Source of the DNA: Parcubacteria group bacterium
Lineage (GTDB): Bacteria > Patescibacteriota > Minisyncoccia > Moranbacterales > UBA9337
DNA length: 64,000 bases
NCBI GenBank assembly: GCA_041662245.1
Contig: JBAZSW010000002.1
Coordinates: forward strand, 89,017-153,016
Direction: 5' to 3'
The translations under genes were made by a program, and so were the position numbers. This document shows positions 3,601 to 54,808 of this stretch, piece after piece (the stretch's first letter is position 1; each line of letters opens with the position of its first letter). The notes beneath the pieces were generated by a model. It ran no database searches and was not told where the DNA came from. It worked only from the letters and a program-made list of their open reading frames with translations.

Positions 3601-3905
3601 TTAAGATAAATTTTTAATTTTTATATTTTTAATTTTTAAATAAATTTTAAAACAAAATTTTTAAACCAATTAAAGTATGATCTTGATTGGAATTAAAACA
3701 TTAAGATTTGAATCAAAATTTTAAATTTTAAATTTAAAGTTTAAAATGAATATAAAAATATTAAATGATTAAAACAGATACGAAATATAATAAGAAAAAG
3801 ATTAAAATTAAAATTTATTCATTTAAAATTGATTTCAAATTTCAAATTTAGCCTTTAAAATTAGAGCTATATTTACAAAATTACAAAAATTACAAAATTA
3901 AAAAT
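3601..3905. repeat. Repeat family A, copy 2
   Basis: About 97% identical to 1956-2257. Confidence 0.85.
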
Positions 3906-4036
3906 TCTATAAACTGTGATTTAGAAGAGAGATACACAAAATTCGTAGAGACGAAACACTGCTTCGTCTGCATGCTACAAACTAATATTGACAATCTTTT
4001 GGCTCTGAAGATCTCTAAGTTAAATAAATTAAATCT

Positions 4037-12822: not shown

Positions 12823-13052
12823 TGTTTCAAAATTAAAACATTAAGATTTGAATCAAAATTTTAAATTTCAAATTTAAAGTTTAAAATGAATAAAAAAATA
12901 TTAAATGATTAAAACAGATACGAAATATAATAAGAAAAAGATTGAAATTAAAATTTATTCATTTAAAATTGATTTCAAATTTCAAATTTAGCCTTTAAAA
13001 TTAGAGCTATATTTACAAAAATTAAAAATTCTAAAAATTACAAAATTAAAGT
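12823..13052. repeat. Repeat family A, copy 3
   Basis: Sequence identity to the other A copies. Confidence 0.8.
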
Positions 13053-14262: not shown

Positions 14263-14621
14263 TGAGATAAGTTTTAAATTTAAAGTTTAAAATGAATATA
14301 AAAATATTAAATGATTAAAACAGATACAAAATATTTCCCCATGTCATTTCGACCGAATAAATATTTGTACTCAAATATTTAGAAGTGGAGAAATCTCAGA
14401 TGAATGATAAAATCTTAAGATAATTTTAAATTTCAAATTTAAAGTTTAAAATGAATATAAAAATATTAAATGATTAAAACAGATACGAAATATAATAAAA
14501 AAAAGATTGAAATTAAAATTTATTTATTTAAAATTGATTTCAAATTTCAAATTTAGTCTTTAAAACTAGAGCTATATTTACAAAAATTAAAAATTCTAAA
14601 AATTACAAAATTAAAGTTATA

Positions 14622-16165: not shown

Positions 16166-16364
16166 TTAAGATAAATTTTGAATTTTAAATTTAAAGTTTA
16201 AAATGAATATAAAAATATTAAATGATTAAAACAGATACGAAATATAATAAAAAAAAGATTGAAATTAAAATTTATTCATTTAAAATTGATTTCAAATTTC
16301 AAATTTAGCCTTTAAAATTAGAGCTATATTTACAAAAATTAAAAATTACAAAATTAAATTCATA
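16166..16364. repeat. Repeat family A, copy 5
   Basis: Sequence identity to the other A copies. Confidence 0.8.
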
Positions 16365-19300: not shown

Positions 19301-22300
19301 TAAAATATATACGCCGAATAATACGACGACAGAGAGTAATAATTTGCAACGGCATAGTGGAAAGTGGGATGATGGAAAATATAAATTATCTTTACCAGGA
19401 ACTCTTAGTGGAATTACGATAAACATTGGATATATAAAAATAGACGGCATACAGCTCAAATATACCAACTCTACGGTTACAGCTCGCAGAGGAATATCTG
19501 TCAATGGTGAAAAAGGAACATCGGTGTGGATATCAAATTGTATTTTACAAGGCGTGATATCCGGAGCTATTACCAACGTAGAAGGTGTTATGTTTGAATA
19601 TAGTACTACTGGAAATAGAACAGCCTATTTTTGGAATAATATCATTTACGGTTTTATAAATGATAGTAACGATATATACGGTATTTATTCTAGAGCTCCT
19701 TGGAAAGTTTATGCCTATAATAACACTTTGTATAATAATTATAAGGGACTCTATGCCGAAGTGAGCAATCTTGTTTTGGCGAAAAATAATACTGTCTATA
19801 ACAATACTTCCTATGATTATTCCGGCACATTTGATGCATCCTCAACCAATAATATTTCTAAAGATGCCACCTCACCCAATGCCGGTGCCACTGATTGCGG
19901 TGGCCATAGTTGCAGGAGTCAAACTGTAGCTTTCATTTCCACTACCTCTGGCGCGGAAGATTTTCATCTAGCTTCCACTGACACGGCCGCCAGAAATTCT
20001 GGGGCGGATCTGAGTACTGATGCCAATCTGTTAGTTGCGACTGATATTGATGGCAATGCGCGTCCGGCATCCGCTGGGTTTGACATTGGCGCGGATGAAG
20101 CGGCCGCCCAGATTTTCTATTCCGTCGGTCAAAACACTACTGATCACAAAACTGGTTCGCCGACCGTGACAGTCAGCGGTACGACCGCCACTTTTTCGGT
20201 TGCGCAAACCGCGACCAATATGGGTGTAGGGGATTTGGTGACTTATACGGGTGGCACGTGTTATATTTCTGCTAAAACTTCTACCACCGTTTGGTCCTGT
20301 CTTAGTGTGACGGGTGGCGCGCCGACCGCTGCCACTAATGCAAGTGTCACCAGCATCGCACATGCCTTTGCATCACTGGAAGGCACGGTAGATGCCGGCA
20401 CTGCTTCGGGCGCTTTTGATGCAACGCATTTGAATACTAAAGATTTGGTGGCGGGAAATTATCAGCTCAATGTTCCTTGCTATTATGACAGCGGAGCGGA
20501 CACTACGGCTGTCACCGTGCAATCTTGGACCACCGGATTTTATAATTATCTTAGGATTTATACGCCCGTAAGTACGACCAGCGAAGTTAACCAATCACAG
20601 AGGCATGGAGGGAAGTGGGATGATGGGAAATATAGCTTACAGCCACCTTTAGGCACCAATACTGTGTTAAATTTATCTACAAGCAATGTTGATATAGATG
20701 GAATTCAAATAAAACATTCAAAAAGTGATGGAAGCGGTGCTACTACCATAAAAACATATTATGGAGAAATAAAAAATAACATTATAGTTGAAGTCGGAAC
20801 TTCTGTTGGATATGCCATAGGTAATTGGAGGGCCAATACATTAATTTATAACAATATAATTTATGGAATAAGTGGTTCTCCGAGAGTCGGTATTAGTGCT
20901 CAAAACGGACAACTTTTTTATGCTTATAATAATACTATTTATGGTTTATCTGTAGGCTTGGGTATATCCTGGGGTCATATAATTGCCAAAAACAACGTCG
21001 CCTACAATAATGTTACAGATTATTCAGGTACTTTCGAAGTATCTTCCACCAACAATCTTTCCAAAGATGGTACAGCCCCGCCATTTAATACATATTACAC
21101 CAATAAAACTTTGGCTTTCACCAATGTCACTTCCGGCGCCGAAGATTTTCATTTAGTCACTACTGATACGGATTCGATCAATAAAGGTGCGGATTTATCC
21201 GCTGATACCAGTTTATCTTTTACTACCGACATCGACGGCGCGCCGAGGAATGCCGCCATCAACGCGTGGGACATCGGGGCGGATGAAACTGCTACCCAAA
21301 TTTTCCGTAGCGTCGCTCCCAGTGCCACGGCGGTTTTGGAAAGTGACACATCACATGCTCGCACGGTAACGCTTACCAGCGGAGTCGCCACTTTTAGTAA
21401 TGCTCTCTCTGACACTATCGGCGTAGGGGATGCTGTTTTGATTGACACCGGTGGCACGGATCAAACCATTGATGCGTCAGACACGATATTATTCATTAGT
21501 AGCAGAAATAGTGCTACCAGCTACACCCTACAAGCTAACAATGGCTCCGTACCCAGCGACATCGCTATCAATGATACTTATAGCATTTATCGCGCCTACA
21601 CCAGTTTGAGCTTGGCCGAAGCGGGGACGAAGAATGCGAGCATTCCGATGACTTTCAACGGTGGGGACAGAAATCTTTTCACCAATAATGAGCAATGGAA
21701 CATTGCGGCTTATGCTAATGGTACGACGGCAGATACGACAGCGGTGGCAGTCAGTGGATGGACGACTGCGCAACAGGATTTTATTAAAGTTTATACTCCT
21801 GTAAGTACTACTGAAGTAGGGACCAGTCAAAGGCACGCAGGGAAATGGGACAGCGGGAAATATAGGTTGGAAGTTGACGCTACTTATGTAACCATTCTTG
21901 ATTCTATTGATAATAATGTTGTAATAGATGGTTTACAGATAAAGTTCATTGCGACTAATTATAGTCAGGCTGGTCTTCGAATAAGAGGAAAGAATAATTA
22001 TATTTCAAATAACATTATTCAAGGGGCTATATCCGGTTCGGCCAGCAATAATTATGCAATATATCCGTATTATGTTTCCAACCCAAGCAATATGTACATA
22101 TGGAACAATATTGTTTATGGATTCAATTCTTCAGGTGGTGCCGGAATTTCCTTGGCTTATACGAATAATATTTATTTATATAATAATACTCTATATGGCA
22201 ATGCATCTGGTATAAAGGTTCCCATTAGCAGTAGCGCTATTGCAAAAAATAATATTGCTTACAACAATGGTACGGATTATGTAACAAGCGGTACCGGATA

Positions 22301-25300
22301 TTTCAATTCTGCTTCCACCAATAATCTTTCCAAGGATGCCACGGCGCCGGCGTATAATACTTATTATGTAAATAAGACGTTGGATTTCATCGACACTGCC
22401 AACAAAGATTTTCACCTATCTCAAACTGATACAGCGGCGCGAGGTGTGGGTGCCAATTTAAGTGATGATGCCGCGTTCAGTGTAGAGACGCGATTAATCG
22501 CGTCTTTACGGCAGGATATTGACGGACAAATGCGAAATCCTGCGGGTGCGGGTTGGGACATCGGGGCCGACGAAGGCACGGTGGAATTTGCGCCAACCGT
22601 GATGCAAACAGGCGGGGATTATTCGTCGCTCAATTCTTGGAATGTGGGCGTGGCGTCCAATCTCACCGCTGCCACGACTCGAGTTTTCGCGCACGGCGGC
22701 AAAACAGGCACCATCGCTGACAACGCCAGTGTGACGGGCCTCACCAGCAATGCCACAGCGACTGTGGTGCATGCCAGTGCTACGCAAATTCTTCTGGAAA
22801 ATATCAGTGGCACTTTTCAAACGGGTGAAACCGTCCAAGTCACGGCCGGTAACAGCGTGGTCATCGCCGACAACGGCAATCCCGCTTCGGCCGTGGCCAA
22901 GATTGATGGAGCGTGGACGAGTGCGGATACGACAGCGGTAACGATTAATGGTTTCACCACCGGCGCTGATGATTATGTTAGGATATACACGACACCAATA
23001 GCGCGGCATCAGGGAAAGTGGGATGATGGAAAATATAGATTGGAAATATCCAATGCAAATATTATTTATAGTTACATGAGCTATGTAAGAATAGACGGCT
23101 TACAAATTGAAGCTACGCGTGATGGCTCTACTGCAATAGGAATACGACTAAGTACATCTGCTGGAGCAGGTGACTTTAATGTTTCAGGTTGTATTTTTAA
23201 GGGCATAAATAATTCAACCGGAACTCATTATGGATTATACATAACCAATAGTTTAGTAAATTTATATATTTGGAATAACATCATTTATGGTTTTCAAAGT
23301 ATAGGAATGTTTTTAAATGCTTCCAACGCATTTGTTTATAATAATTCTGTCAATAATAATGTTACGGGAATATATAGAAATAATGGAAGAGTAGTTTCTA
23401 AGAACAATATTTCATATAGTAATACTACCAAGGATTATGATGGCAGTTTTGATGCGTCTTCTACTAATAATCTTTCTTCCGACGCCACCTCCCCCAACTC
23501 CGGCGCCACCGATTGCGGTGGACATAGTTGTCGTAATCAAACTGTAGCTTTTATTTCCACCACTTCCGGTTCCGAAGACTTTCATCTCTCATCGAGTGAT
23601 ACGGCGGCCAAAGACAGCGGAATAGACTTAAGCGGCGACGCTAATTTGAGATTCACCACTGACATTGATGTTGCCTCGCGCCAAGCCAACAAGTGGGACA
23701 TCGGGGCGGATGAATTTTGGGAGGCGCAAACGGGTGGATCGGTTGGCGGCGCGTCAGCCATCACCACGCCGGCCGTGGCGGATTATGATTTCAATGAAGG
23801 CTTTGGCAGCTTGGCACACAACGCCGGCTCGGGCGGGGCGACTTTGAACGGCACGCTGAATGCCGGCGGGATTGGTACTAATCCAACCACCACGGCCATG
23901 TGGGACAAAGGCGGGAAATTCGGCGGGGCGATAGAGTTTGATGGAACGGATGATTATGTGAGCGCGACACAAAATGGGACAGCCTTAACGCAACTGTCTG
24001 TTTCTTTTTGGCTGAAATCCAATTCAACGCCGACTTCTGACAAAGGGGTTTTTCAATGGGTCAATATCTTGTCCGCTCCAAACCCATTCATAGCAATATC
24101 TAGAACGGCCAATACAAATAATTACAGATTTTTTATTGACGGCAATGATAGAGTGACAACAGCTATGGTCAATAATTCTTGGTATTTCGTTTCTCTTGTT
24201 CTTAATTCCAGCAATTTGTGGACAGTCTATATAAATGGGACATCTGTTGGCACATATCAAGATGATGCCACCCATGCCTATCAAGCATCGGCAAATAGTG
24301 TATATTTTGGTAATGATTTTTTTGGATACCTAGATGGTTTAATGGACGATGCCAAGATTTTCAACTACGCTCTCTCGGATTCGCAGATTAAAACTCTCTA
24401 CAACAACAACTCCGCCTTGAGCGCGGGCAATGATGCCAGTCGCAATAACAACGGCACAACTGTGACGGGAACGGCCAAAGATTATTGCATCCCAGGAGAC
24501 ACCGCGCAGTGCGACAAACCTGTCGGGGAATGGAAGATGGATGAAAAAGTGGCGGGTGATGCCAAAACGATTTATGACACGAGCGGCAACGGCAATGACG
24601 GCACGACACACTGGGGTGCGAATGCGAGCGGGATGGATTGCTCTGTGCCCGGCAAATTTGGTTCGGGTTGTGGATTTGATGGGGTGGATGATTATGTCTC
24701 AGTGGCCAATAATAGTGTCTTGGATATTGCAGATAATGGTAATTTTAGTTTCGGAGGATGGTTTAAAATATCTTCTAACACCGGAGACGCCGAACAACCT
24801 ATTATTTCTAAAAGAAATTCTAATACCGGTCCAAATTATCAAGGTTATGAATTATTTATTAAGTCAGATAATACGATTGATTGCCTGATTCAGCAAAATG
24901 GCTCTAATTCTTCAGATATTTGGTCGACAACTACTTATAATGATGGTAAATGGCATTATGCCGAATGTGTTCTCACTTCTGGCGTTTCAAATAAATTATT
25001 TGTAGATGGGATTAATGTTGCTTCAGATGTTACGAGTATACCATCGACAGGGTTTTCTAATAGTCAACCATTAACATTCGGCATATCCTCCAATTATAGT
25101 CCGTGGAATTTTTCTGGTTCAATCGACCAAGTCCAAATCTTTAACTACGCCCGCACGCCGGCGCAGATCGCGTGGGATTTCAACAAAGGCGGACCAATCG
25201 CCGAGTGGCGCCTCAATGAATGTACGGGTGCGACGGTGCATGACGAAACAACCAATGGCAACAACGGCACCATCAATTTGGGCACGAGTGGCACGCAAAC

Positions 25301-25925
25301 GACTGCGATTGGTAATGGTACTTGCTCAGCCTCTGCCAGTACTCCTTGGTACAACGGCCGCACCGGCAAATATAACGCTTCTTTGAATTTTGATGGAACG
25401 GATGATTATGTTAGTGCCAATAGCACTATTTCTTCTGGCACGGCTGGTAGTACGGTGGTGTGGATAAAGCCATCTGGCTCATATACTAATTCGCAGTGTC
25501 CCGTAGGGGGGATAGGTGCTGGGGGTGCCAGCTATCAATCACGCTATTTGATTTGCGCGATTTATAATGCTGTTTGTGGAGACAGTAGTTGGAGTGCGTG
25601 GATTGGCAATGGGACCACCTATCAATATGCTTGTTCGACGCAAGTTTATAATTCGACTAATTTTCCGGCTGGGGTTTGGACACAGTTGATTGCAACCTAT
25701 GATGGTACGAATATAAAATTATATAAAGATGGTATTTTGGTAAAAACAGTGGCACAGACAGTCAGTGGGGCCGGTGACGCTCAACCATTTTCCATCGGTC
25801 GCTTAGGTGGTTACAATGGCGGACGTTTCAATGGTCAAATCGACAACGTTAAAATTTTCAACTACGCGCTGACCCCGTTACAAGTTCAGGCTGAATATAA
25901 TAACGGCGCTAGTGTGGGATTTTGA
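16365..25925 (+). CDS. Giant secreted modular protein (3186 aa): signal peptide, 6 modules, 4 C-terminal LamG-like domains
   Basis: Same signal peptide and module grammar as the 5008 gene. The sixth module is divergent (TVEFAPTVMQTGGDYSSLNSW...). C-terminal LamG signatures are DDAKIFNYALSDSQIKTLY, DQVQIFNYARTPAQIAW and DNVKIFNYALTPLQVQAEY. Confidence 0.85.
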   Translation: MSKFQKLLLILVFTIIGLSSATFASAASNVYYSVGQSTADLKNGTPNVSITSGVATLSVAQTGNIGVGDVIVANAISYYISSRSSQSVWNVVTNTGATPTNITSTAVTSIKHVYPSLSAAVTGASTLLGSSNLTTADVVLNILCYYDSGADTTAVTVSGYTTDATRYIKIYTPSNTSTEANNSQRHSGKWDASKYRLEVSAATALSNSNLYTVIEGLQIYETPNAHDQSAIYSTTSSTIKGNICKGDATNSTYRQHGINILSTNGNTIYIENNVVYNFSRIYSSGILMNSGYPIFYALNNTVYNNYNGIYNSGVDTAKYIKNNISMGSSGFNFAGTFDSNASNNVSYDATAPGTGSLTNQSLAQVAFISTVSGNEDFHLQPSSVAKNIGVDLSSYFTTDIDGATRNTAINAWDIGADEAATQIFRSVGPSATAVLESDTSHARTVTLTSGVATFSAALADNIGVGDAVLIDTGGTDQTIDASDTILFISSRNSATSYTLQANNGSVPSDIAVNDTYSIYRAYTSLSLAEAGTKNTSIPITFNGGNRDLATNNEQWNLACYANGTTADTTAARIDSWTTDTTRFIKIYTPVTTAEVGISQRHSGKWDTSKYRLETGTGASSLRVTQNYTVVQGLQVYNSSTVNEENGISLDAYRNHMTARDNIVKGGYTGISTGSQSSSDGNNYIINNIVYGAYRTGINANNPVSTNPNFVYNNSVSGCNVGVVEYGYGITASAEGIVENNISINLGGYGTYKKDFAATIQSYNISQDTSATGTGSLTGKTNTDVKFVSIISGAEELHLQAGSVAKNVGADLSGTFTTDIDGQTRSASLGWDIGADEAANAVYYSVGQSTANLMTGTPNVAITAGVATFDVAQTGNIGVGDVIVANAISYYIASKTSTTVWNVVTVTGATPTDITSTAVTSIKHVYTSLNSAAAGAGTLLGTTDLYTNNYQINIPCYYDSAADTTAVTISGYTTAMPNYIKIYTPNNTTTESNNLQRHSGKWDDGKYKLSLPGTLSGITINIGYIKIDGIQLKYTNSTVTARRGISVNGEKGTSVWISNCILQGVISGAITNVEGVMFEYSTTGNRTAYFWNNIIYGFINDSNDIYGIYSRAPWKVYAYNNTLYNNYKGLYAEVSNLVLAKNNTVYNNTSYDYSGTFDASSTNNISKDATSPNAGATDCGGHSCRSQTVAFISTTSGAEDFHLASTDTAARNSGADLSTDANLLVATDIDGNARPASAGFDIGADEAAAQIFYSVGQNTTDHKTGSPTVTVSGTTATFSVAQTATNMGVGDLVTYTGGTCYISAKTSTTVWSCLSVTGGAPTAATNASVTSIAHAFASLEGTVDAGTASGAFDATHLNTKDLVAGNYQLNVPCYYDSGADTTAVTVQSWTTGFYNYLRIYTPVSTTSEVNQSQRHGGKWDDGKYSLQPPLGTNTVLNLSTSNVDIDGIQIKHSKSDGSGATTIKTYYGEIKNNIIVEVGTSVGYAIGNWRANTLIYNNIIYGISGSPRVGISAQNGQLFYAYNNTIYGLSVGLGISWGHIIAKNNVAYNNVTDYSGTFEVSSTNNLSKDGTAPPFNTYYTNKTLAFTNVTSGAEDFHLVTTDTDSINKGADLSADTSLSFTTDIDGAPRNAAINAWDIGADETATQIFRSVAPSATAVLESDTSHARTVTLTSGVATFSNALSDTIGVGDAVLIDTGGTDQTIDASDTILFISSRNSATSYTLQANNGSVPSDIAINDTYSIYRAYTSLSLAEAGTKNASIPMTFNGGDRNLFTNNEQWNIAAYANGTTADTTAVAVSGWTTAQQDFIKVYTPVSTTEVGTSQRHAGKWDSGKYRLEVDATYVTILDSIDNNVVIDGLQIKFIATNYSQAGLRIRGKNNYISNNIIQGAISGSASNNYAIYPYYVSNPSNMYIWNNIVYGFNSSGGAGISLAYTNNIYLYNNTLYGNASGIKVPISSSAIAKNNIAYNNGTDYVTSGTGYFNSASTNNLSKDATAPAYNTYYVNKTLDFIDTANKDFHLSQTDTAARGVGANLSDDAAFSVETRLIASLRQDIDGQMRNPAGAGWDIGADEGTVEFAPTVMQTGGDYSSLNSWNVGVASNLTAATTRVFAHGGKTGTIADNASVTGLTSNATATVVHASATQILLENISGTFQTGETVQVTAGNSVVIADNGNPASAVAKIDGAWTSADTTAVTINGFTTGADDYVRIYTTPIARHQGKWDDGKYRLEISNANIIYSYMSYVRIDGLQIEATRDGSTAIGIRLSTSAGAGDFNVSGCIFKGINNSTGTHYGLYITNSLVNLYIWNNIIYGFQSIGMFLNASNAFVYNNSVNNNVTGIYRNNGRVVSKNNISYSNTTKDYDGSFDASSTNNLSSDATSPNSGATDCGGHSCRNQTVAFISTTSGSEDFHLSSSDTAAKDSGIDLSGDANLRFTTDIDVASRQANKWDIGADEFWEAQTGGSVGGASAITTPAVADYDFNEGFGSLAHNAGSGGATLNGTLNAGGIGTNPTTTAMWDKGGKFGGAIEFDGTDDYVSATQNGTALTQLSVSFWLKSNSTPTSDKGVFQWVNILSAPNPFIAISRTANTNNYRFFIDGNDRVTTAMVNNSWYFVSLVLNSSNLWTVYINGTSVGTYQDDATHAYQASANSVYFGNDFFGYLDGLMDDAKIFNYALSDSQIKTLYNNNSALSAGNDASRNNNGTTVTGTAKDYCIPGDTAQCDKPVGEWKMDEKVAGDAKTIYDTSGNGNDGTTHWGANASGMDCSVPGKFGSGCGFDGVDDYVSVANNSVLDIADNGNFSFGGWFKISSNTGDAEQPIISKRNSNTGPNYQGYELFIKSDNTIDCLIQQNGSNSSDIWSTTTYNDGKWHYAECVLTSGVSNKLFVDGINVASDVTSIPSTGFSNSQPLTFGISSNYSPWNFSGSIDQVQIFNYARTPAQIAWDFNKGGPIAEWRLNECTGATVHDETTNGNNGTINLGTSGTQTTAIGNGTCSASASTPWYNGRTGKYNASLNFDGTDDYVSANSTISSGTAGSTVVWIKPSGSYTNSQCPVGGIGAGGASYQSRYLICAIYNAVCGDSSWSAWIGNGTTYQYACSTQVYNSTNFPAGVWTQLIATYDGTNIKLYKDGILVKTVAQTVSGAGDAQPFSIGRLGGYNGGRFNGQIDNVKIFNYALTPLQVQAEYNNGASVGF

Positions 25926-41002: not shown

Positions 41003-41215
41003 CTTAAGATAATTTTAAATTTCAAATTTAAAGTTTAAAATGAATATAAAAATATTAAATGATTAAAACAGATACGAAATATAATAAGAAAAAGATTGAA
41101 ATTAAAATTTATTCATTTAAAATTGATTTCAAATTTCAAATTTAGCCTTTAAAATTAGAATATTAAGATTTGAATCAAAATTCAAAATTTTAAATTAAAG
41201 TTTAAAAAGAAATAT
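41003..41215. repeat. Repeat family A (copy 8), followed by a short-form B element at 41224-41280
   Basis: Sequence identity to the other copies. Confidence 0.75.
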
Positions 41216-46864: not shown

Positions 46865-48322
46865 ATGCGAGAAGATATTCTAAAAGCTAAGCTAGAGAAA
46901 CTGGCAAATCTGAGAAATGCCAATGTTGATCCTTACCCAGAAAAATCCCAAAGAACGCATTTTAACAAAGAGGTTCTGGATAATTTTGATAGTATTAAAG
47001 GAGAGGTTTTCTTAGTGGGAAGAGTAAAGTCTGTGCGACCGATGGGTGGATCATCTTTTGTGCATATCGAAGATGAAAGTGGCAAGATGCAATTATTCTT
47101 GAATAAAAATAATATCGGAGCTGATGAATATAAATTATTTACTAAAAATATTGAACTGGGAGATTTTATTCAAGTAAATGGAGATCTTTTTAAAACTAAA
47201 ACAGAAGAGAAAACTTTAGCCGTAAAGAGCTGGAAAATTTTGACCAAAAATATTCGTCCTATTCCTACGGAATATTATGGATTAAAAGATGTTGAGAAGC
47301 TTTTGAGAAAAAGGTATTTAGATTTGATGGGCAATGAGGAAACCCGAGAATTATTTCGAAAAAAATCTTTGTTTTGGCAGACAGTGAGAAAAGTTTTAAC
47401 TGATAACGGATTTTTGGAAGTGCAAACTCCTGTACTGGAGAGTGTCCCAGGGGGAGCAGACGCGGAGCCTTTTATTACTCATTATAATGCCCTAAACCAA
47501 GATTTTTATTTAAGAATTTCTCTAGAGTTGCATTTGAAGAGACTTTTAGTAGGAGGTTATGAAAAAGTTTTTGAGATTGGAAGAGTTTTTCGCAATGAAG
47601 GAATTTCTAGAGAACATTTGCAAGAGTTTGATCATATTGAATTTTATTGGGCTTATGCAGATATGGAAAATGGAATGGAGCTAACAGAAAAACTATACAA
47701 AGCTATCGCCAAGGAAATGTTGGGAGAAAAAATGATTTCCAATTGGGAGGATAATGAAATTAACTGGGGCGAATCTTGGCCTCGAGTAGATTATTTTACA
47801 GAGTTTAAAAAAGAAACAGAGATAGATTTGAGTGCAGATGTGACTGTAGCTGAGCTTAGAAAGAAGGCAGATGAACTAGGAATAAAGTATGATAAAACAG
47901 ATGGTAAAGGAAGAATGATTGACACCATTTATAAAAAGACAGTTCGCCAGAAATTGATTCAGCCTTGTTTTTTGGTGGGGCATCCGATTGAAGTTTCGCC
48001 CTTGGCTAAAAAAGATCCCACTACTCCTAACCGAGTTTTACGTTTTCAACCCATCGCTTGTAAAAGTGAATTAGGCAATGGCTTTTCGGAATTAAATGAT
48101 CCGATTGATCAAAGGGAAAGGTTTGAGGAGCAAATGAAATTAAGAGAGGCGGGCGATAGTGAAGCGCAAATGTTAGATGAAGATTTTATTGAAGCTTTGG
48201 AATATGGAATGCCACCAGCTTTTGGATTTGGAATGAGTGAGCGATTATTTGCAGTGATGATGGGTCGTTCAGTCAGAGAAACTGTTATTTTCCCATCAGT
48301 AAGAACGATAGAGGAGAAGTAA
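46865..48322 (+). CDS. lysS: Lysyl-tRNA synthetase (class II)
   Basis: N-terminal OB-fold anticodon-binding region followed by class II motifs FRNEGISREHLQEFDHIEFYWAY and GMPPAFGFGMSERL. Confidence 0.85.
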   Translation: MREDILKAKLEKLANLRNANVDPYPEKSQRTHFNKEVLDNFDSIKGEVFLVGRVKSVRPMGGSSFVHIEDESGKMQLFLNKNNIGADEYKLFTKNIELGDFIQVNGDLFKTKTEEKTLAVKSWKILTKNIRPIPTEYYGLKDVEKLLRKRYLDLMGNEETRELFRKKSLFWQTVRKVLTDNGFLEVQTPVLESVPGGADAEPFITHYNALNQDFYLRISLELHLKRLLVGGYEKVFEIGRVFRNEGISREHLQEFDHIEFYWAYADMENGMELTEKLYKAIAKEMLGEKMISNWEDNEINWGESWPRVDYFTEFKKETEIDLSADVTVAELRKKADELGIKYDKTDGKGRMIDTIYKKTVRQKLIQPCFLVGHPIEVSPLAKKDPTTPNRVLRFQPIACKSELGNGFSELNDPIDQRERFEEQMKLREAGDSEAQMLDEDFIEALEYGMPPAFGFGMSERLFAVMMGRSVRETVIFPSVRTIEEK

Positions 48323-48378
48323 TTTTAAATTATAAATTTCAAGTTTAAAATGAATAACAAATGATTAAATGACAAAAT

Positions 48379-48464
48379 GTAGAGACGTAATTCATTACGT
48401 CTAGATGTAGTAGAGACGCAATTCATTACGTCTAGAAGAAGAGACGCGATAAATCGGCGTCTCT
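48379..48464. repeat. Three tandem REP hairpins (GTAG-type)
   Basis: gtagagacgtaattcattacgtctag (48379-48404); tagagacgcaattcattacgtcta (48411-48434); agagacgcgataaatcggcgtctct (48440-48464). Confidence 0.75.
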
Positions 48465-48504
48465 GCGAATGTTTAAAAATTAAAAATTTGAGAATTAAGA
48501 TTTG

Positions 48505-48548
48505 ATTTAACCTGCCCGCAGTTGCTACAGTGTTGCAGGCGGGAATTC
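48505..48548. repeat. Inverted copy of the 41866-41913 element
   Basis: gatttaacctgcccgcagttgctacagtgttgcaggcgggaattc. Confidence 0.7.
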
Positions 48549-48574
48549 AAAATTTAAAATTCAAAATTATTGGG

Positions 48575-49537
48575 ATGTTGATAGATGATGTTACAATTAA
48601 AGTCAAAGCAGGCAAAGGCGGAGATGGAATGGTGGCTTTTGCTAAAACTCTGATGAATCAGGGACCAACCGGAGGAGATGGTGGAAGGGGCGGGAATATT
48701 ATTATTAGAGGAGTAAATGATTTGGGGGCATTGCGACCTTTTAAAACTAAAAAATTAGTAGCTGCTAAAAATGGTGGACAAGGCGAACAAAATATGAGAA
48801 CCGGAGCCAATGGAGCAGACGGAATAGTAGTTGTGCCGGTGGGAACATTGGTGCATGATTTGACTCATAAAAAAGATTATGAAATTAGTAAAATTGGAGA
48901 AGAAATTGTAATTTTAAAAGGGGGCAATGGCGGTTTTGGAAATTTTTATTTTCGTTCTAGCACTAACACCACTCCCGAGCAAGCCAACCCCGGTCAAATT
49001 GGAGAAGAGGCTCAGATAAGATTAGAATTAAAATTAATTGCCGACATTGGATTTGTGGGTTATCCCAATGTAGGGAAATCAAGTCTGCTTAACGAACTTA
49101 CTAATGCGTCAAGCAAAGTGGCTAATTATAAATTTACTACGTTAGAACCGCACTTGGGAGTTTATTATGAATTAATTTTAGCGGATATCCCAGGGATAAT
49201 TGAAGGAGCTTCGGAAGGGAAAGGTCTTGGACATAAGTTTCTCAAACACATCGAACGCACCAAAATATTATTTCATTTTATTTCAGCCGATAGTGAAAAT
49301 CCCTTGGAGGATTATAAAATAATCAGAGAAGAATTGGGAAAATTTAATAAAAAGCTTTTAAAAAAAGAAGAATGGGTGATCGTGAGTAAATCTGATGAAA
49401 AAAGTCCTGAGGAAGTTAAAAAAATTGTAAACAAGTTAAAGAAGAAAAACCCTCAAATAATTGCGTTATCTTTATTGGATGACAAAAGTATCGAGGGGGT
49501 AAGGAAGATTTTAAATGAAATAAAAAAGAATAAATAA
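48575..49537 (+). CDS. obg: GTPase Obg/CgtA
   Basis: Obg fold KAGKGGDGMVAF...GG.GG.GG; G-domain GFVGYPNVGKSSLLN, DIPGIIEGAS and VSKSD. The track ORF starts at an upstream TTG; the ATG is at 48575. Confidence 0.85.
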   Translation: MLIDDVTIKVKAGKGGDGMVAFAKTLMNQGPTGGDGGRGGNIIIRGVNDLGALRPFKTKKLVAAKNGGQGEQNMRTGANGADGIVVVPVGTLVHDLTHKKDYEISKIGEEIVILKGGNGGFGNFYFRSSTNTTPEQANPGQIGEEAQIRLELKLIADIGFVGYPNVGKSSLLNELTNASSKVANYKFTTLEPHLGVYYELILADIPGIIEGASEGKGLGHKFLKHIERTKILFHFISADSENPLEDYKIIREELGKFNKKLLKKEEWVIVSKSDEKSPEEVKKIVNKLKKKNPQIIALSLLDDKSIEGVRKILNEIKKNK

Positions 49538-49601
49538 TTTTGAATTTTAAATTTTGAATTTTAAATCAATTTTTAATGATTGAATGAAAAAATGGCGAAA
49601 T

Positions 49602-49630
49602 GTAGAGATGTGGCACTGCCACGTCTGTGC
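49602..49630. repeat. REP hairpin
   Basis: gtagagatgtggcactgccacgtctgtgc. Confidence 0.6.
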
Positions 49631-49766
49631 ATAATTTAATAATTAAGATATTTTTAATTAATTTTAAATTTAAAATTTAGCCTTTAAAATTAAGCAATCG
49701 TAAAAATAACAGGTTGCAATTTATTGAAGTATATTAAAATAATTTTAAAATTTAAAACGTAAATCT

Positions 49767-51083
49767 ATGTTAGATATAAAATATATTAGAGAGAACAAGG
49801 AGGCTATTGCAGAAGCAATTAAAAATAAAAATATTAAATTGGATTTAGATAAGCTCTTGGAGTTGGATAGAGAAAGAGTGGAGCTATTACAAAAAGTAGA
49901 AAAATTGCAAGCCGAAAAAAACGATTTAAATAATGAAATGGCCAAGGCTCAAAATAAAGAAGCGACAATCGAAAAAGGGGCTGAAATTAAAAAAGAATTA
50001 GCCGAGCTAGAGCCTAGATTTAAAGAAGTAAAAGAGGCTTTTGAAAATTTAATGGTAAAAGTTCCCAATATTGTTTCCTCTGATACCCCTTTGGGAAAAG
50101 ATGAAAGTGATAATAAAGAAGTCCTTGTTTGGGGAGAAATTCCTAAATTTGATTTTCCGATTAAAAATCACATTGAGATAGGAAAAAATTTGGATATTTT
50201 AGATTTGGAAAAAGGAACAAAAACAGCGGGTTATCGAGGATATTATCTTAAAAATGAAGGAGCTTCTTTAGTTATGGCTTTAATGATGTATGCTATAAAT
50301 AAAATGATTGAAAAGGGTTACACGCCCATGATTCCTCCTACTTTAGTAAAAGGAAACGCACTTTTTGGAACAGGATATTTCAGTGGCAAAGAATATGATT
50401 CCAAGGAAGATAATATTTATCAGTTAGCATCTGCCGATGAAGAGGTAGATGGAAAAACCAAAAAAGAAAAAAAATTCTTAGTGGGAACAGCTGAGCCATC
50501 GCTATTGGCTTATTATGCTGGCGATGTTTTAAAAGAAGAAGATTTGCCGATAAAAGTAGCGGGTTACTCGCAATGCTATCGGAGTGAAATTGGCAGTTAT
50601 GGCAAGGACACTAAGGGGTTTTATCGTGTGCATGAATTTATGAAAGTAGAGCAAGTGGTTTTAATGAAAGCGGATGAGGAGGCTTCAGTAAGAATGCACG
50701 AAGATATGTTTGCTATTTCTAAAGAAATACATGAAGAATTGGGATTACCTTATCGGGTACTTCAAATTTGTACGGGTGATATGAGTGCAGGAAAATATCG
50801 AGCTTACGATATTGAAGCTTGGATGCCGGGACTTAATCGTTGGGGAGAAACGGGGAGTGCTTCTAATTTTACTGATTGGCAAGCTCGTCGACTTAATACT
50901 AAATACGTAGATAAAGAGGGAAACAAAAAATTTGTTTATATGCTCAATAATACTGTACTTCCAAGTGTGCGACCTTTTATCGCTATTTTAGAAAACTTTC
51001 AGCAAGCGGATGGTAGTGTGATTATTCCCGAAGTTTTGCGCAAATGGATGTCAGGAAATATCGAAAGAATTTTGAAAAAATAA
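49767..51083 (+). CDS. serS: Seryl-tRNA synthetase
   Basis: N-terminal coiled-coil arm, then class II core GYSQCYRSEIGSYGKDTKGFYRVHEF. Confidence 0.85.
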   Translation: MLDIKYIRENKEAIAEAIKNKNIKLDLDKLLELDRERVELLQKVEKLQAEKNDLNNEMAKAQNKEATIEKGAEIKKELAELEPRFKEVKEAFENLMVKVPNIVSSDTPLGKDESDNKEVLVWGEIPKFDFPIKNHIEIGKNLDILDLEKGTKTAGYRGYYLKNEGASLVMALMMYAINKMIEKGYTPMIPPTLVKGNALFGTGYFSGKEYDSKEDNIYQLASADEEVDGKTKKEKKFLVGTAEPSLLAYYAGDVLKEEDLPIKVAGYSQCYRSEIGSYGKDTKGFYRVHEFMKVEQVVLMKADEEASVRMHEDMFAISKEIHEELGLPYRVLQICTGDMSAGKYRAYDIEAWMPGLNRWGETGSASNFTDWQARRLNTKYVDKEGNKKFVYMLNNTVLPSVRPFIAILENFQQADGSVIIPEVLRKWMSGNIERILKK

Positions 51084-51156
51084 ATTGTAGAGGCGTGATT
51101 CATCGCGACTAAAGACAATATTGTAGAAACGCGACAAATTTCGTCGTTCACGAGCG

Positions 51157-51226
51157 ATAGAATAAATCGGCATCTCTACATGATGTTTGATAAATATGTT
51201 GTAGAGACGCAATTTATTGCGTCTAA
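51157..51226. repeat. REP pair in inverted orientation flanking the RAYT 5' end
   Basis: cgatagaataaatcggcatctctaca (reverse) and tgtagagacgcaatttattgcgtctaaaa (forward). Confidence 0.7.
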
Positions 51227-51233
51227 AATAAAA

Positions 51234-51899
51234 ATGACAGACAAGTTCAAAAATAAATATAAAATAGATTCTACTCGTTTAAAAAATTATGATTATTCTC
51301 AAAATGGAATGTATTTTGTTACCATTTGCACTAAAGATCATAAGCATTTTTTTGGTGAGGTGATTGATGGAAAAATGATTTTAAATGATGTCGGTAAAAT
51401 TGTAGATAAATTATGGCAAGAAATTCCTAGATATTTCCCATTTGTAAAATTAGATATTTATCAGATTATGTCTAACCATATTCATGGGAATTTGGAAATA
51501 ATTCGAGACGATAATGTAGAGACGCGATTTATCGCGTCTAAAACTAACCATATTCATGGGAATTTGGAAATAATTCGAGACGATAATGTAGAGACGCGAT
51601 TTATCACGTCTCAAACAAACGGAGGTGTTGCTGGTGGAAGTAATCCGATGCTAAATCCAGATTCATTATCAAGTATTATTCGTTGGTATAAAGGTAGATG
51701 TTCATTTGAAATCAGAAAAAATATGAAGGGTGTAACTTTTGCTTGGCAACCTCGATTTTATGATCATATAATTCGCGATAATGAATCTTTGAATAAAATT
51801 CGTGAATATATAATTGAAAATCCTGAAGTGTGGGAAAAAGAAGGAGATAAGATAGAGAATAATTTTAATGTAGAGACACGATTTGTCGTGTCTAATTAA
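51234..51899 (+). CDS. REP-associated tyrosine transposase (RAYT, IS200-like Y1 HuH transposase) with a 72-bp in-frame REP-containing tandem duplication at 51474-51617
   Basis: HuH motif SNHIHGNLEI and C-terminal RAYT signature WQPRFYDHIIRDNESLNKIREYIIENPEVW. The gene is flanked and internally punctuated by GTAGAGACG...CGTCTCTAC hairpins. Confidence 0.8.
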   Translation: MTDKFKNKYKIDSTRLKNYDYSQNGMYFVTICTKDHKHFFGEVIDGKMILNDVGKIVDKLWQEIPRYFPFVKLDIYQIMSNHIHGNLEIIRDDNVETRFIASKTNHIHGNLEIIRDDNVETRFITSQTNGGVAGGSNPMLNPDSLSSIIRWYKGRCSFEIRKNMKGVTFAWQPRFYDHIIRDNESLNKIREYIIENPEVWEKEGDKIENNFNVETRFVVSN

Positions 51900-51925
51900 G
51901 ACGCGATGAATCGCGTCTCTACGGG
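51869..51925. repeat. REP pair (forward plus inverted) at the RAYT 3' end
   Basis: tgtagagacacgatttgtcgtgtcta and aagacgcgatgaatcgcgtctctacggg. Confidence 0.7.
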
Positions 51926-51935
51926 TGTAAAAAAT

Positions 51936-53165
51936 ATGCAAAAAGAAACAAAAAAAAATTTAAAATTTCCTAAAGACTTCATGTGGGGGGTAGCCACCGC
52001 TTCTTATCAAATTGAAGGTAATAATTCTAATTCGGATTGGTGGCAATGGGAAGAAAAAGGAGAAACAATTGATAAGTCAGGTTTAGCTTGTGATTATTGG
52101 AATAGATTTAAAAATGACCATGACTTTTTAGATGAATTGGGAGTAAATTCTTTTCGTCTGTCGCTAGAGTGGAGCAGGATTGAAAATAAAGAAGGAGAAT
52201 TTTCGCAAGAAACCATTTCGCATTATCGGGAAATTTTAGAAGATTTAAAAAAGAGAAATATCAAAACTACTGTAACTCTTTGGCACTGGACCAGTCCCAT
52301 TTGGTTTCAAAGAAATTATGGATTCCATAATAAAAAATCTGTCGAAATTTTTACCAGATATTGTCAAAAAGTAGTATCGGAATTGGGGGATTTGGTTGAC
52401 ATTTATGTCGTGGTTAATGAACCGATGGTGCCTTTGGGAATGGGATTTCTAGGAGGAGTTTTTCCTCCCGGTTTTAAAAATCCTTTTAAATTTTATCGAG
52501 CCTTAAATAATGTTGCTAGCGCTTATAAGAATATTTATAAAATAATCCATGAAAAATATCCGACAGCTCAGGTGGGAACTAGCTATCTCTATAATTGGTA
52601 TGAAAGATCTGATTCTAAGATGGTGAATGTTATAAATAAGATAAGTCAATGGTATCGGATAGATTTATTGGGTAATAAAATTAAGGATTATCAAGATTAC
52701 TTAGGAATTGATTATTATCGAATTGGAAAAATAAAATTTAATTGGAGAAAAATAAAATTAGACACTAAAAATCAAATTTATTTTGGTTTTACCATTGAGG
52801 AAAATAAAGAAAATTTGATGAAATGGATTGCTTATCCGGAAGGAATTTATAAAGTTTTAAAAGAGGCTCAAAAAAAATATAATCTTCCAATTTATATTTT
52901 AGAAAATGGTTTGCCGACAACTGAAGGAACAGAAGATGTCGAAAGAGTAAAATTTATTCAAGATCATTTGTTTTATGTGAAAAAAGCCATGGCTGAAGGG
53001 GTGGACGTGAGGGGATATTATCATTGGTCACTTTTAGACAATTATGAATGGCTTTATGGTTATGCGCCACGTTTTGGTTTGATTGAAATGAATTATGAAA
53101 CTTTAGAAAGAACGCCACGCAAGAGTTTTTATGCGTATAAAAAAATAATTGAAAAGACGCGATAA
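51936..53165 (+). CDS. Glycoside hydrolase family 1 beta-glucosidase
   Basis: FMWGVATASYQIEGN, acid/base motif VVNEP, nucleophile motif YILENG and C-terminal YHWSLLDNYEW. Confidence 0.85.
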   Translation: MQKETKKNLKFPKDFMWGVATASYQIEGNNSNSDWWQWEEKGETIDKSGLACDYWNRFKNDHDFLDELGVNSFRLSLEWSRIENKEGEFSQETISHYREILEDLKKRNIKTTVTLWHWTSPIWFQRNYGFHNKKSVEIFTRYCQKVVSELGDLVDIYVVVNEPMVPLGMGFLGGVFPPGFKNPFKFYRALNNVASAYKNIYKIIHEKYPTAQVGTSYLYNWYERSDSKMVNVINKISQWYRIDLLGNKIKDYQDYLGIDYYRIGKIKFNWRKIKLDTKNQIYFGFTIEENKENLMKWIAYPEGIYKVLKEAQKKYNLPIYILENGLPTTEGTEDVERVKFIQDHLFYVKKAMAEGVDVRGYYHWSLLDNYEWLYGYAPRFGLIEMNYETLERTPRKSFYAYKKIIEKTR

Positions 53166-53229
53166 ATCGGCGTCTCTACAATGTATTTGATAGGAATCTA
53201 GAATGTAGAGACGTGATTTATCACGTCTA
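53154..53229. repeat. REP pair (inverted plus forward)
   Basis: aagacgcgataaatcggcgtctctaca ... tgtagagacgtgatttatcacgtcta. Confidence 0.7.
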
Positions 53230-53400
53230 AATAGAATATAGAAACATGATCTATCACGTCTAAATAGAATATAGAAACATGATCTATCACGTCTAAATAG
53301 AATATAGAAACATGATCTATCACGTCTAAATAGAATATAGAAACATGATTTATCACGTCTAAATAGAATTTAGAAACATGATTTATCACGTCTAAAAATT
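53198..53400. repeat. Tandem array of at least 5 33-bp REP-derived units (tagaatatagaaacatgatctatcacgtctaaa)
   Basis: Exact 33-bp periodicity with no spacers. The units derive from the adjacent REP with a decayed left arm. Confidence 0.8.
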
Positions 53401-53491
53401 GTTAGCTTGTTTTTATGCTAAAATGTTAACGTGCCAATATGTTTTTGTGTTATAATGTATTCATTGAACATTGCTTATAAAAAAAACAAAA

Positions 53492-54808
53492 ATGGAAGAG
53501 GAGCCTTTGATAAAATTAAAAAATGTTCAGCTGACATACAATGAAGGTAAGCCCAACGCCTATAAAGCTTTGCATGATATTAATCTTCAGATAAAAGATA
53601 ATGCTTTTGTGATTATTTTCGGGCCCAGTGGATGCGGTAAATCCAGTTTGCTAAACACTATTTCCGGCCTAGAAGTTCCTGACAGTGGAGAAGTTTTTGT
53701 GGCGGGAAATGATTTGATTAATATTAGTAATAAAAATCACGTTAATTTTCATCGAAATATTATTGGAATGGTTTTTCAATCATATAATTTAATTCCTACC
53801 TTGAGTGTTTTGGATAATGTAGCTATCCCGCAAATATTTGTTTCTAATAATAAAAAGAAGAGAGAAGAAAAGGCGATGAAACTTTTGGATAGATTTGGGA
53901 TTATGCCTCAAGCGCATAAATTACCGTCAGAACTTTCTGGAGGGCAACAACAAAGGATAGGAATTGCCAGAGCGATTATTAATGATCAGCCGATAATATT
54001 GGCAGATGAACCTGTTGGAAACTTGGATTCCAAGTCAGCCAATAATGTAATGCAGATACTGAGCGAATTGAATAGGGAAGAGAAAAAAACGATAATCATG
54101 GTTTCCCATAATCCGGAGAACATAATTTGGGGCAATCATATTATCTACATGAAAGATGGAAAAATTGTCAAAGAAGATATCAAAAATGCTCTTGGCGAAA
54201 CAACTCAAGTTAAGAAGGAGGAAGATGATGAGTTTACCAAAATTGAAGCGATGCTCAGAAATTTCCAAGGATTGACCAAAGAACAAATCAAGATATTAAT
54301 TACTCCGATGAAATCAGAAATTTTGACTAGGTCAGTTTTGGTGGATATGGACGAGAAGCAGATGGGTATCTTGGAAGAAGGAATTAGAAGAAGGATTTTA
54401 GATACCATAACTCCCGAAGAATTTTTTGAGAGAATTGATAAATCAGATAAATTGGGTGGAGTAGATATGGATATCCGAACTGCTCATCGAGTGGCCAAAA
54501 AAGTAGAGGATGTAATTGCTTTGGCTCATATTGTAAATAATCCCGATAATGATGATCATGAATACAAGGCTAACTCTATAGTCAAATATTTATTAACTCA
54601 GGACAATGTGAAGATTGATCCTAATCAAATAAATAAATTAAAAGAATTGATTAAGCATAGGATAATGAATAGAATCGATAGAGGAGTTTTCAAACAATTA
54701 TTAGATTCGCCTATCCAAAATAACGGAGCTGGTTTTAACAGCCGAACAGCTAAAAAAGTATCAAAAACTATGGATATGATTTTAATGGTAGGCTATGGTA
54801 TGGCTTAA
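53492..54808 (+). CDS. ABC transporter ATP-binding protein (MacB/LolD-like) with a long C-terminal extension
   Basis: Walker A motif GPSGCGKSSLLN; signature LSGGQQQRIGIARA; Walker B motif ILADEPVGNLD. Confidence 0.8.
   Translation: MEEEPLIKLKNVQLTYNEGKPNAYKALHDINLQIKDNAFVIIFGPSGCGKSSLLNTISGLEVPDSGEVFVAGNDLINISNKNHVNFHRNIIGMVFQSYNLIPTLSVLDNVAIPQIFVSNNKKKREEKAMKLLDRFGIMPQAHKLPSELSGGQQQRIGIARAIINDQPIILADEPVGNLDSKSANNVMQILSELNREEKKTIIMVSHNPENIIWGNHIIYMKDGKIVKEDIKNALGETTQVKKEEDDEFTKIEAMLRNFQGLTKEQIKILITPMKSEILTRSVLVDMDEKQMGILEEGIRRRILDTITPEEFFERIDKSDKLGGVDMDIRTAHRVAKKVEDVIALAHIVNNPDNDDHEYKANSIVKYLLTQDNVKIDPNQINKLKELIKHRIMNRIDRGVFKQLLDSPIQNNGAGFNSRTAKKVSKTMDMILMVGYGMA

Follow-up and report, generated by a model that had tools for sequence, protein, structure and literature searches.

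A REP-associated tyrosine transposase gene with cognate REP hairpins inside and around its coding sequence in a Parcubacteria group bacterium

A stretch of 64,000 nt from the genome of a Parcubacteria group bacterium (assembly GCA_041662245.1, contig JBAZSW010000002.1, positions 89,017 to 153,016; called the window in the following, and numbered from its first nucleotide) contains a gene for a REP-associated tyrosine transposase (RAYT, also called TnpAREP) amid a cluster of repetitive extragenic palindromic (REP) hairpins. The region is best explained as a REPtron, i.e., a single-copy, resident RAYT gene together with its cognate REP hairpins, which belongs to the lineage of TnpAREP subclass 2.4, or RAYT group 4, and we assign a probability of about 85% to this interpretation. 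As judged from the modeled structure of its product, the open reading frame (ORF) 51234-51899 encodes a REP-associated Y1 HuH transposase of the domesticated, hairpin-cutting type. The surrounding hairpins, which carry the tetranucleotide GTAG, are its cognate REPs, including copies that are translated inside the gene.

The transposase gene and its family

The RAYT gene is encoded on the plus strand (51234-51899) and specifies a protein of 221 aa, the start of which agrees with that of the homologs (MTDKFKNKY...). The product is identical to the NCBI protein MFA6183756.1, which is encoded on a 196,952-bp contig of a metagenome-assembled Parcubacteria group bacterium. The JGI gene call begins at an upstream ATG at 51180 and results in a protein of 239 aa; the homologs favor the start at 51234, and the start at 51180 would lead to the translation of a fourth REP (51201-51224) as VETQFIAS.

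An earlier note on this DNA had recognized the HuH and tyrosine motifs of a RAYT, and both are intact, as is the WQ motif; all of them lie on the plus strand. The first copy of the HuH motif, NHIH, comprises N81-H82-I83-H84 (51474-51485), and a second NHIH (N105-H108; 51546-51557) is the product of a duplication that is described below. The WQ motif consists of W171 and Q172 (51744-51749), and the tyrosine motif YIIENP (residues 192-197; 51807-51824) contains Y192, the presumed catalytic tyrosine, in a C-terminal helix (183-207). In an alignment of 83 sequences H82, H84, and W171 are invariant, Y192, N196, and P197 are nearly invariant (90% or more), and the consensus of the tyrosine motif is YIxxNP.

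The comparison with the PDB by sequence only was weak, with the Escherichia coli TnpAREP (4er8) found at an E value of 0.058 over the C-terminal part only, where YIIENP is aligned to YIYINP. Therefore, a comparison of folds was needed. An AlphaFold2 model built with 83 homologs (pLDDT 77, pTM 0.71) has a confident core, with a pLDDT of about 97 for the HuH strand and values below 60 for the linker residues 91-140. In the model the first HuH motif is situated in the beta-strand of residues 82-89, and the second HuH motif and both REP-derived peptides fall into the linker; copy 1 is the one that is built into the predicted fold. A Foldseek search against the PDB with this model retrieved exclusively Y1 HuH transposases among the top 30 matches (IS608, ISDra2, IS200 TnpA, and TnpAREP 4er8), and the match to 4er8 had the lowest rmsd, an E value of 1.2e-5, and a TM score of 0.60 on the target. 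Absence of the Y1 fold, which the earlier note had named as a refutation, was thus not observed. The structure is decisive where the curated hidden Markov models (HMMs), which are discussed below, are borderline, and it thereby settles the identity as a Y1 transposase.

The TnpAY1 proteins have been classified by Quentin et al. 2018 (BMC Genomics 19:475, PMC6006769), and their subclass 2.4 is RAYT group 4 of Bertels et al. 2017 (PMC5581495). Members of subclass 2.4 have a mean length of about 194 aa and the motifs NH[IFV]H, WQ, and YIxNNP, they occur in Cyanobacteria, Bacteroidetes, and various other phyla, and their hallmark is the presence of in-frame REPs between the HuH and the tyrosine motif, in a peripheral variable region (PMC6006769). 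The cognate REPs are either of the "canonical long" type, with three G-C pairs at the foot of the stem, or of the "double foot" type (GTAG...CTAC) (PMC6006769). The RAYT of the window shares with this subclass the motifs NHIH, WQ, and YIIENP, in-frame REPs between HuH and Tyr (read as VETRFIAS and VETRFITS), flanking REPs, and a host outside of the Proteobacteria. By its motifs and its insertion trait it fits TnpAREP subclass 2.4 / RAYT group 4. It differs from the subclass as published in that its host belongs to the Candidate Phyla Radiation (CPR), its tyrosine motif contains E in place of the published N, three consecutive G-C pairs are lacking in the stem foot AGACG/CGTCT, and a tandem duplication, which also copied the HuH motif, has doubled the internal REPs. 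The 2018 survey was based on complete genomes, and its main text mentions neither CPR nor a tandem expansion of REP units (PMC6006769).

The REP hairpins and the residence of the gene

The REP unit consists of GTAG and a 9-bp stem (AGACGYRAT / ATYRCGTCT) that is closed by a loop of 2 nt, and the sequence behind the stem is usually an A-rich tail instead of CTAC. The pattern GTAGAGACGYRATTNATYRCGTCT, with up to three mismatches allowed, has 14 matches in the window versus 0.00 in 100 shuffles, and eight REPs of the window agree with the strict consensus at every position. The curated list contains 14 REPs between 48379 and 53228, ten with GTAG on the plus strand and four with GTAG on the minus strand. 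The cluster of GTAG hairpins around the gene that had been reported before is therefore confirmed, with a chance expectation of 0. In contrast, the fully palindromic form that had been proposed for the hairpins, GTAGAGACG-N6-14-CGTCTCTAC, has 0 exact matches in the window, and the single-foot consensus replaces it; a literature search for the string GTAGAGACG retrieved unrelated primer sequences only. The hairpins are real, because 95% of the stem cells are paired and compensatory double changes are present at three stem positions. The stems are long (9 bp), with A-T, G-C, A-T, C-G, and G-C as the foot, and most copies in the window have a single foot. Near double-foot REPs are found at 22482-22509 and 48438-48466, and true double-foot REPs in many homologous loci.

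Several REPs are combined into a composite module of about 95 nt with the order REP+, about 14 nt, REP+, 0-7 nt, REP- (the sign denotes the strand that carries GTAG). One such module lies in the spacer between the genes for lysyl-tRNA synthetase (LysRS) and Obg at 48379-48466 (REP+ 48379-48402, REP+ 48410-48433, and REP- 48442-48466, the latter with a GCAG foot and a 1-nt bulge). A degenerate module is situated upstream of the RAYT gene at 51087-51179 (REP+ 51087-51110, REP+ 51123-51148, and REP- 51150-51179) and aligns with the intact modules that flank the RAYT homolog on either side in the related locus L001, which is described below. The pattern search found an intact REP on the plus strand (51201-51224) downstream of the degenerate module and ahead of the RAYT start codon. 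The 3'-end of the gene overlaps with a tail-to-tail doublet (51870-51922) of REP+ 51870-51893 and REP- 51899-51922, the folded span of which (51866-51926) forms one long predicted hairpin (-18.6 kcal/mol, z -6.9). The C-terminal 8-9 residues of the RAYT (VETRFVVS) are encoded by REP 51870-51893, a third REP that is read through by the ORF. A head-to-head pair follows at 53155-53228 (REP- 53155-53179 and REP+ 53205-53228), and a single variant REP, GTAGAGATGTGGCACTGCCACGTCT, is found on the plus strand in the spacer between the genes for Obg and seryl-tRNA synthetase (SerRS) at 49602-49626. Therefore, the earlier description as inverted doublets holds for the pairs at 51870-51922 and 53155-53228, but the modules at 48379-48466 and 51087-51179 are triplets of REP+, REP+, and REP-, and the element at 49602-49626 is single. 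The last codons and the stop codon of the gene that follows the RAYT gene, which encodes a glycoside hydrolase of family 1 (GH1), lie in REP 53155-53179, and the last SerRS codons of L001 lie in its REP 4352-4375.

In addition to the 14 REPs of the cluster, five degenerate tandem units and two copies elsewhere in the 64 kb (3945 and 22482) were found, both on the plus strand. The copy at 22482-22505 is a perfect match to the pattern and lies in frame inside an ORF of 3186 aa (16365-25925), where it is read as VETRLIAS; this giant, unrelated ORF uses the same reading frame of the REP as the RAYT gene. The curated copy at 3945-3969 is an intergenic variant (GTAGAGACGAAACACTGCTTCGTCT).

A role of the REPs as terminators on the gene strand is unlikely, none of them being followed by a T-run on the plus strand, and a terminator scan yielded one site on the minus strand versus 2.7 expected. 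A search of 47500-54000 against Rfam did not identify any family, the sole match being an sRNA at chance level (E 0.65). The GC skew at the RAYT region is +0.24 to +0.29. Therefore, the plus strand is likely the lagging-strand template, and most of the local REPs (10 of 14) would probably be exposed in the active orientation.

All genes from 46.8 to 56 kb are encoded on the plus strand, in the order LysRS, Obg, SerRS, RAYT, GH1, an ABC ATPase, and an FtsX-type permease. The identical order is found in L001, the contig JBBQOS010000022.1 of a related genome (GCA_038331135.1), with amino acid identities of 83% for LysRS, 85% for Obg, 68% for SerRS, 61% for RAYT, 39% for GH1, 83% for ABC, and 81% for FtsX. 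Because the relative has the RAYT gene at the same SerRS-RAYT-GH1 site, it is regarded as a resident gene that is passed on at a fixed position and does not hop, within the scope of the 64 kb and one relative. The RAYT of L001 has one HuH motif, and its linker contains a decayed forward REP (ATGGAGACACGATTTATCGCGACT) and an intact reverse REP. The REPs of L001, seven in total, are all inside the RAYT gene or not more than about 100 bp away from it, and the LysRS-Obg, Obg-SerRS, and GH1-ABC spacers, which contain REPs in the window, are devoid of REPs in L001. This suggests a local spread of REPs, which were either gained in the neighboring spacers in the lineage of the window or lost in the other lineage. 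The GH1 genes (51936-53165 in the window, 5169-6434 in L001) and the SerRS genes are less similar than the other neighbors with their identities of 81-85%, and GH1 in the window is bracketed by the REP doublets 51870-51922 and 53155-53228; this combination hints at replacement or recombination at REPs.

The residence of the gene also bears on the view that it is an ordinary mobile insertion sequence of the IS200/IS605 type and that the hairpins are its ends. The catalytic fold is indeed shared with the TnpA proteins of IS608, IS200, and ISDra2, the Pfam family is named "Transposase IS200 like", and, by analogy, the chemistry on single-stranded hairpins and the guide tetranucleotide 5' of the hairpin would be common to both. 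However, IS608 and ISDra2 are mobile multi-copy elements, the left and right ends of which differ, and they are often accompanied by tnpB. In contrast, tblastn detected one copy of the RAYT gene in the 64 kb, it occupies the same chromosomal site in a relative with flanking genes of 81-85% identity, tnpB is absent, and its flanks consist of multiple repeated GTAG REPs and not of two different ends. In addition, the motifs NHxH / WQ / YIxxNP are those of class 2 TnpAREP and not the DH[VI]H / Y[IV]ENQ of subclass 1.1. We regard an insertion sequence as highly improbable.

REPs inside the gene and the tandem duplications

The linker between the HuH and the WQ motifs contains two REPs on the plus strand. 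Internal REP 1 (51516-51539), GTAGAGACGCGATTTATCGCGTCT, is read in frame 1 as VETRFIAS and is predicted to fold as single-stranded DNA with -9.0 kcal/mol (z -4.6). Internal REP 2 (51588-51611) has one stem mismatch, is read as VETRFITS, and has a predicted folding energy of -5.2 kcal/mol (z -3.0).

Similar insertions are widespread among the homologs. The homolog search yielded 2670 proteins, many of them named RayT by their source; many homologs, including many of the closest, are from CPR genomes (Moranbacteria, Parcubacteria), and others are from Flavobacterium and further Bacteroidota. In almost all of them a hypervariable stretch directly follows MPNHxHG and contains peptides that stem from REPs in both orientations and two reading frames, e.g., VETRFIAS, RDAINRVST, RRDEALPRLY, and VETQHCCVS...TQQCCVST. 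At least one REP-like peptide is present in this linker in 98 of 118 homologous proteins, and the peptides are often arranged in tandem, e.g., 14-aa units that are found at least six times in Flavobacterium proteins. The DNA level was checked with five homolog loci (L001-L005) and 80 metagenome loci, and the ORF could be delimited in 63 loci. Intact GTAG hairpins are situated between HuH and WQ in 53 of the 63, and about 16% of the loci have no detectable internal REP. The variable upper stem of the internal REPs is that of the flanking REPs in the same locus (L001-L005 and dozens of metagenome loci), as exemplified by GTAGAGACGCCCAAATTGGGCGTCT in L142 and GTAGAGACGAGGCATTGCCTCGTCT in L004. 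Thus, two statements of the earlier note do not hold for this subclass: in-frame REPs are not unusual but its published hallmark (PMC6006769) and typical of the related loci, and the systems are not mostly proteobacterial, in view of the published host range and the many CPR genomes among the closest homologs.

The exact 24-nt REP pattern GTAGAGACGYRATTNATYRCGTCT was also found in at least 120 stretches of reference genomes (L006-L125). Among the matches listed, the hosts include Cyanobacteria (Nostoc/Calothrix), Bacteroidota, Omnitrophota, Cloacimonadota, Methylococcales, Moranbacteria, Torokbacteria, and others, and only three to five stretches have a RAYT gene within the retrieved 8 kb. Because so few of the stretches carry a nearby RAYT gene, the 24-nt REP is truly dispersed in those genomes (e.g., Nostoc, Calothrix). 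In the same matches it is often a perfect double-foot palindrome and is usually located far away from any RAYT gene.

The high incidence of internal REPs raises the possibility that they are maintained as functional cis-elements on which the RAYT acts, e.g., as a protected master copy of the REP or REPIN, as a site of self-recognition, or as an autoregulatory site. The intact hairpins lie in the same linker in loci with very different upper stems, and the DNA element is kept while its orientation, its frame, and the encoded peptide vary. In several loci (e.g., L005, L127, L141, L186) REPs are found inside the gene, whereas the adjoining 300 bp are free of them, and the tandem expansion within homologous genes points in the same direction. 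On the other hand, the published view is that they are insertions into peripheral loops with little effect on the protein (PMC6006769), and the position can be explained by survivorship, since the gene would be inactivated by insertions at other positions. Decay of internal copies is also seen, as in the forward copy of L001, and a function of the element has to be reconciled with the loci in which it is not detectable. Taken together, a maintained function seems rather doubtful to us. If it were true, the enzyme would cut and rejoin its own gene, i.e., a transposase would edit its own coding sequence, and the tandem gain and loss of REP units would make the copy number of the linker segments, and here even of the HuH motif, variable.

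In the RAYT gene of the window, the two internal REPs are part of a tandem repeat, which was detected by Tandem Repeats Finder with a period of 72, 2.1 copies, and 96% matches (51472-51620, plus strand). The in-frame duplication of 72 bp had been noticed before, and its units are in fact located 2 nt further upstream, at 51472-51543 and 51544-51615. Unit 1 consists of NHIHGNLEIIRDDN, the REP peptide VETRFIAS, and K, and unit 2 differs from it at two positions (51534 G versus 51606 A, and 51540 A versus 51612 C) and ends with Q. Each unit contains the catalytic HuH motif together with the REP, and the duplication is exactly in frame and added 24 residues to the linker, including the spare HuH motif. 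A second NHxH is present in none of the other 119 close homologs. In spite of the addition, the linker is not extraordinarily long: the comparison with relatives revealed distances between HuH and WQ of 59-155 aa (median 96.5) in close homologs, and 90 aa in the window protein.

The earlier notion that REPs have invaded the ORF is too simple. In the 72-bp event a segment was duplicated in tandem, in which the HuH motif and a REP had been present before, and no REP was newly inserted. The junction has an imperfect microhomology of 5 nt, C(T/A)AAC (CTAAC as the left and CAAAC as the right version), which fits slipped-strand replication or unequal exchange. The crossover maps to a CT at the left end of the unit and to a CA just past unit 2, and cuts at CT and CA, which is where characterized TnpAREP enzymes cleave (PMC8266576), would be compatible with the junction as well. 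This coincidence would favor an action of the RAYT on its internal REPs, but it has a high probability of occurring by chance and is suggestive only. A further microhomology, GTCTAA, was rejected as the end-point of the duplication, because it predicts a period of 65 nt and not of 72 nt.

One might suspect that the duplication is an artifact of the assembly or a collapse of strain variants, and that the real gene has one HuH motif and one internal REP. The sequence is known from one assembly only, with a protein cluster of two members that both stem from the same 196,952-bp contig, and short tandem repeats with hairpins are prone to errors in metagenome assembly. However, the two units are not identical, the duplication is exactly in frame, and tandem expansions of REP units are common in independent homologs. 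Thus, an artifact is clearly unlikely.

A second tandem array, of six units of 33 bp, was detected by Tandem Repeats Finder on the plus strand upstream of the ABC transporter gene (53199-53396). Unit 1 contains an intact REP. Units 2-6 share G to A changes at three positions of the unit (at the first of which unit 6 has T instead of A), which convert GTAG to ATAG and AGACG to AAACA and thereby destroy GTAG and two stem pairs. The array unit does not fold (-1.1 kcal/mol, z -0.3), and the array is not present in the matching spacer of L001. Because units 2-6 are unable to fold and have nevertheless been amplified, slippage that is independent of the RAYT also operates in this region. A CRISPR array was considered and rejected, the units being contiguous and without spacers. 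An analogous array of three REP-derived units of 42 bp is located directly 3' of the RAYT gene in the Flavobacterium sp. locus L003 (10606-10790; GCA_041392025.1). The 33-bp array, the HuH motif within the duplicated unit, and the REP at the C-terminus (51870-51893) extend the description that was given in the earlier note.

Mechanism, weight of the evidence, and meaning

Cleavage at a CT or CA that flanks the REP is known for the TnpAREP enzymes of E. coli, Stenotrophomonas maltophilia, and Marinomonas (PMC8266576). By analogy, the RAYT of the window would bind the GTAG-bearing strand of a REP once it is folded as single-stranded DNA (PMC8266576), and would cut at CT or CA beside the hairpin, forming a 5'-phosphotyrosine link via Tyr192 (PMC8266576). 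The strand could then be rejoined elsewhere, and REP copies and composite modules would be created or rearranged, in the window mostly not more than 3 kb away from the gene. Between the HuH strand and the following helix, the linker tolerates almost any length, as reflected in the range of 59-155 aa between HuH and WQ in close homologs, and REPs with a stop-free frame therefore persist there.

Several observations weigh against the interpretation as a REPtron of subclass 2.4. The RAYT scores 21.7 bits with the Pfam model Y1_Tnp (PF01797), below the cutoff of 23 bits, and the sole NCBIfam match, REP_Tyr_transpos (NF047646; E 9e-14), reaches 51.5 bits versus a cutoff of 80. The enzyme might be impaired by its second HuH motif. 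The system is in part a relic, the upstream module 51087-51179 being decayed and the 33-bp array amplifying REPs that have lost the ability to fold. Only two to three REPs are found outside of the 5-kb cluster within the 64 kb examined, and a genome-wide dissemination is unproven with a window of this size. Last, the proposed mechanism is carried over from group 2 and group 3 enzymes, none of which belongs to subclass 2.4. With respect to the HMMs, the Pfam score rises to 23.8 bits after the removal of one repeat unit and to 24.4 bits after the removal of all inserts, so that the Y1_Tnp check proposed in the earlier note failed with the native protein and succeeded without the insertions. The HMM alignment covers the C-terminal half of the RAYT only, and a precomputed PF01797 match is present in most close homologs. 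The shortfall is due to the long linker and to the divergence from the models, and not to a missing domain.

Some of these observations would also be expected if the REPtron were a decaying relic, in which the duplicated HuH motif cripples the enzyme and the REPs are fossils that change by replication slippage only. The uniqueness of the second HuH motif among 120 homologs, the degenerate upstream module, the amplification of the non-folding array units by slippage, the scarcity of REPs outside of the cluster, and the microhomology at the 72-bp junction, which is of the kind slippage would use, are in accordance with this view. However, the ORF is intact and every conserved catalytic residue is present, and the insert is in frame and in a linker that remains shorter than the median of the homologs. 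Furthermore, the AlphaFold2 model builds a normal core with HuH copy 1, the eight perfect REPs have retained the strict consensus, and the REPs in spacers that are empty in the syntenic L001 argue for a fairly recent spread. A decaying relic therefore appears fairly unlikely, and we favor the REPtron with a resident RAYT.

Comparison with well-known systems helps to place it. The E. coli TnpAREP (RayT/YafM, 4ER8), which belongs to RAYT group 2 / subclass 2.2, has in common with the window RAYT the Y1 HuH fold, the GTAG 5' of the hairpin, composite multi-REP modules that resemble bacterial interspersed mosaic elements, and the organization as a single resident gene with flanking REPs. In contrast, the sequence identity is only about 15%, the E. 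coli REPs need a bulge in the stem and occur in hundreds of copies, while the REPs of the window have perfect stems and few, local copies (in 64 kb), and the E. coli gene does not contain internal REPs. The Rickettsia palindromic elements (RPE) and intragenic REPs (Di Nocera et al. 2013, PMC3733652) are also small in-frame palindromes in coding genes that do not destroy these genes, and the REP in the unrelated ORF of 3186 aa shows that such a case exists in the window, too. However, RPEs exceed the REPs of the window in length, and a dedicated transposase is not known for them, whereas the host gene in the window is that of the cognate transposase itself.

Some further features of the window lie outside of the REPtron. 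The overall GC content is 38%, and the composition shifts from a GC content of 0.37-0.45 and a skew near 0 to 0.12 in 1-40000 to a GC content of about 0.32-0.33 and a skew of +0.22 to +0.29 in 40001-64000. Near-identical AT-rich intergenic blocks are situated upstream of several genes (1964-2254, 3607-3906, 12957-13050, 14522-14615, 16274-16358, and 41111-41143); they contain ATTCATTTAAA, ATTTCAA, and TTACAAAA repeats and look like a repeated promoter or leader region. A tandem repeat of 180 bp (3.6 copies, 73% identity; 12-661) is probably part of a gene for a repeat-domain protein.

The arrangement is real, but it was described in 2018 for this enzyme branch, and therefore the REPtron of the window is a new example of a type of system that was known before, and the understanding of this system does not change. 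The CPR host, the doubled HuH motif, and the tandem expansion of REP-containing units are possibly new, and no paper that links RAYTs with CPR was found in the literature library that was searched. The REPtron adds a clear example from the CPR and the Parcubacteria to the REP-RAYT systems. In the comparison with the syntenic L001, REP modules appear in neighboring spacers while the RAYT gene remains in place, which supports the view that RAYTs are resident enzymes that spread REPs. The near-universal presence of internal REPs that preserve their hairpins, their tandem expansion, and the occurrence of the 24-nt REP across phyla raise the question of a function of the internal copies, and the doubled HuH motif represents a natural test of the tolerance of the linker.

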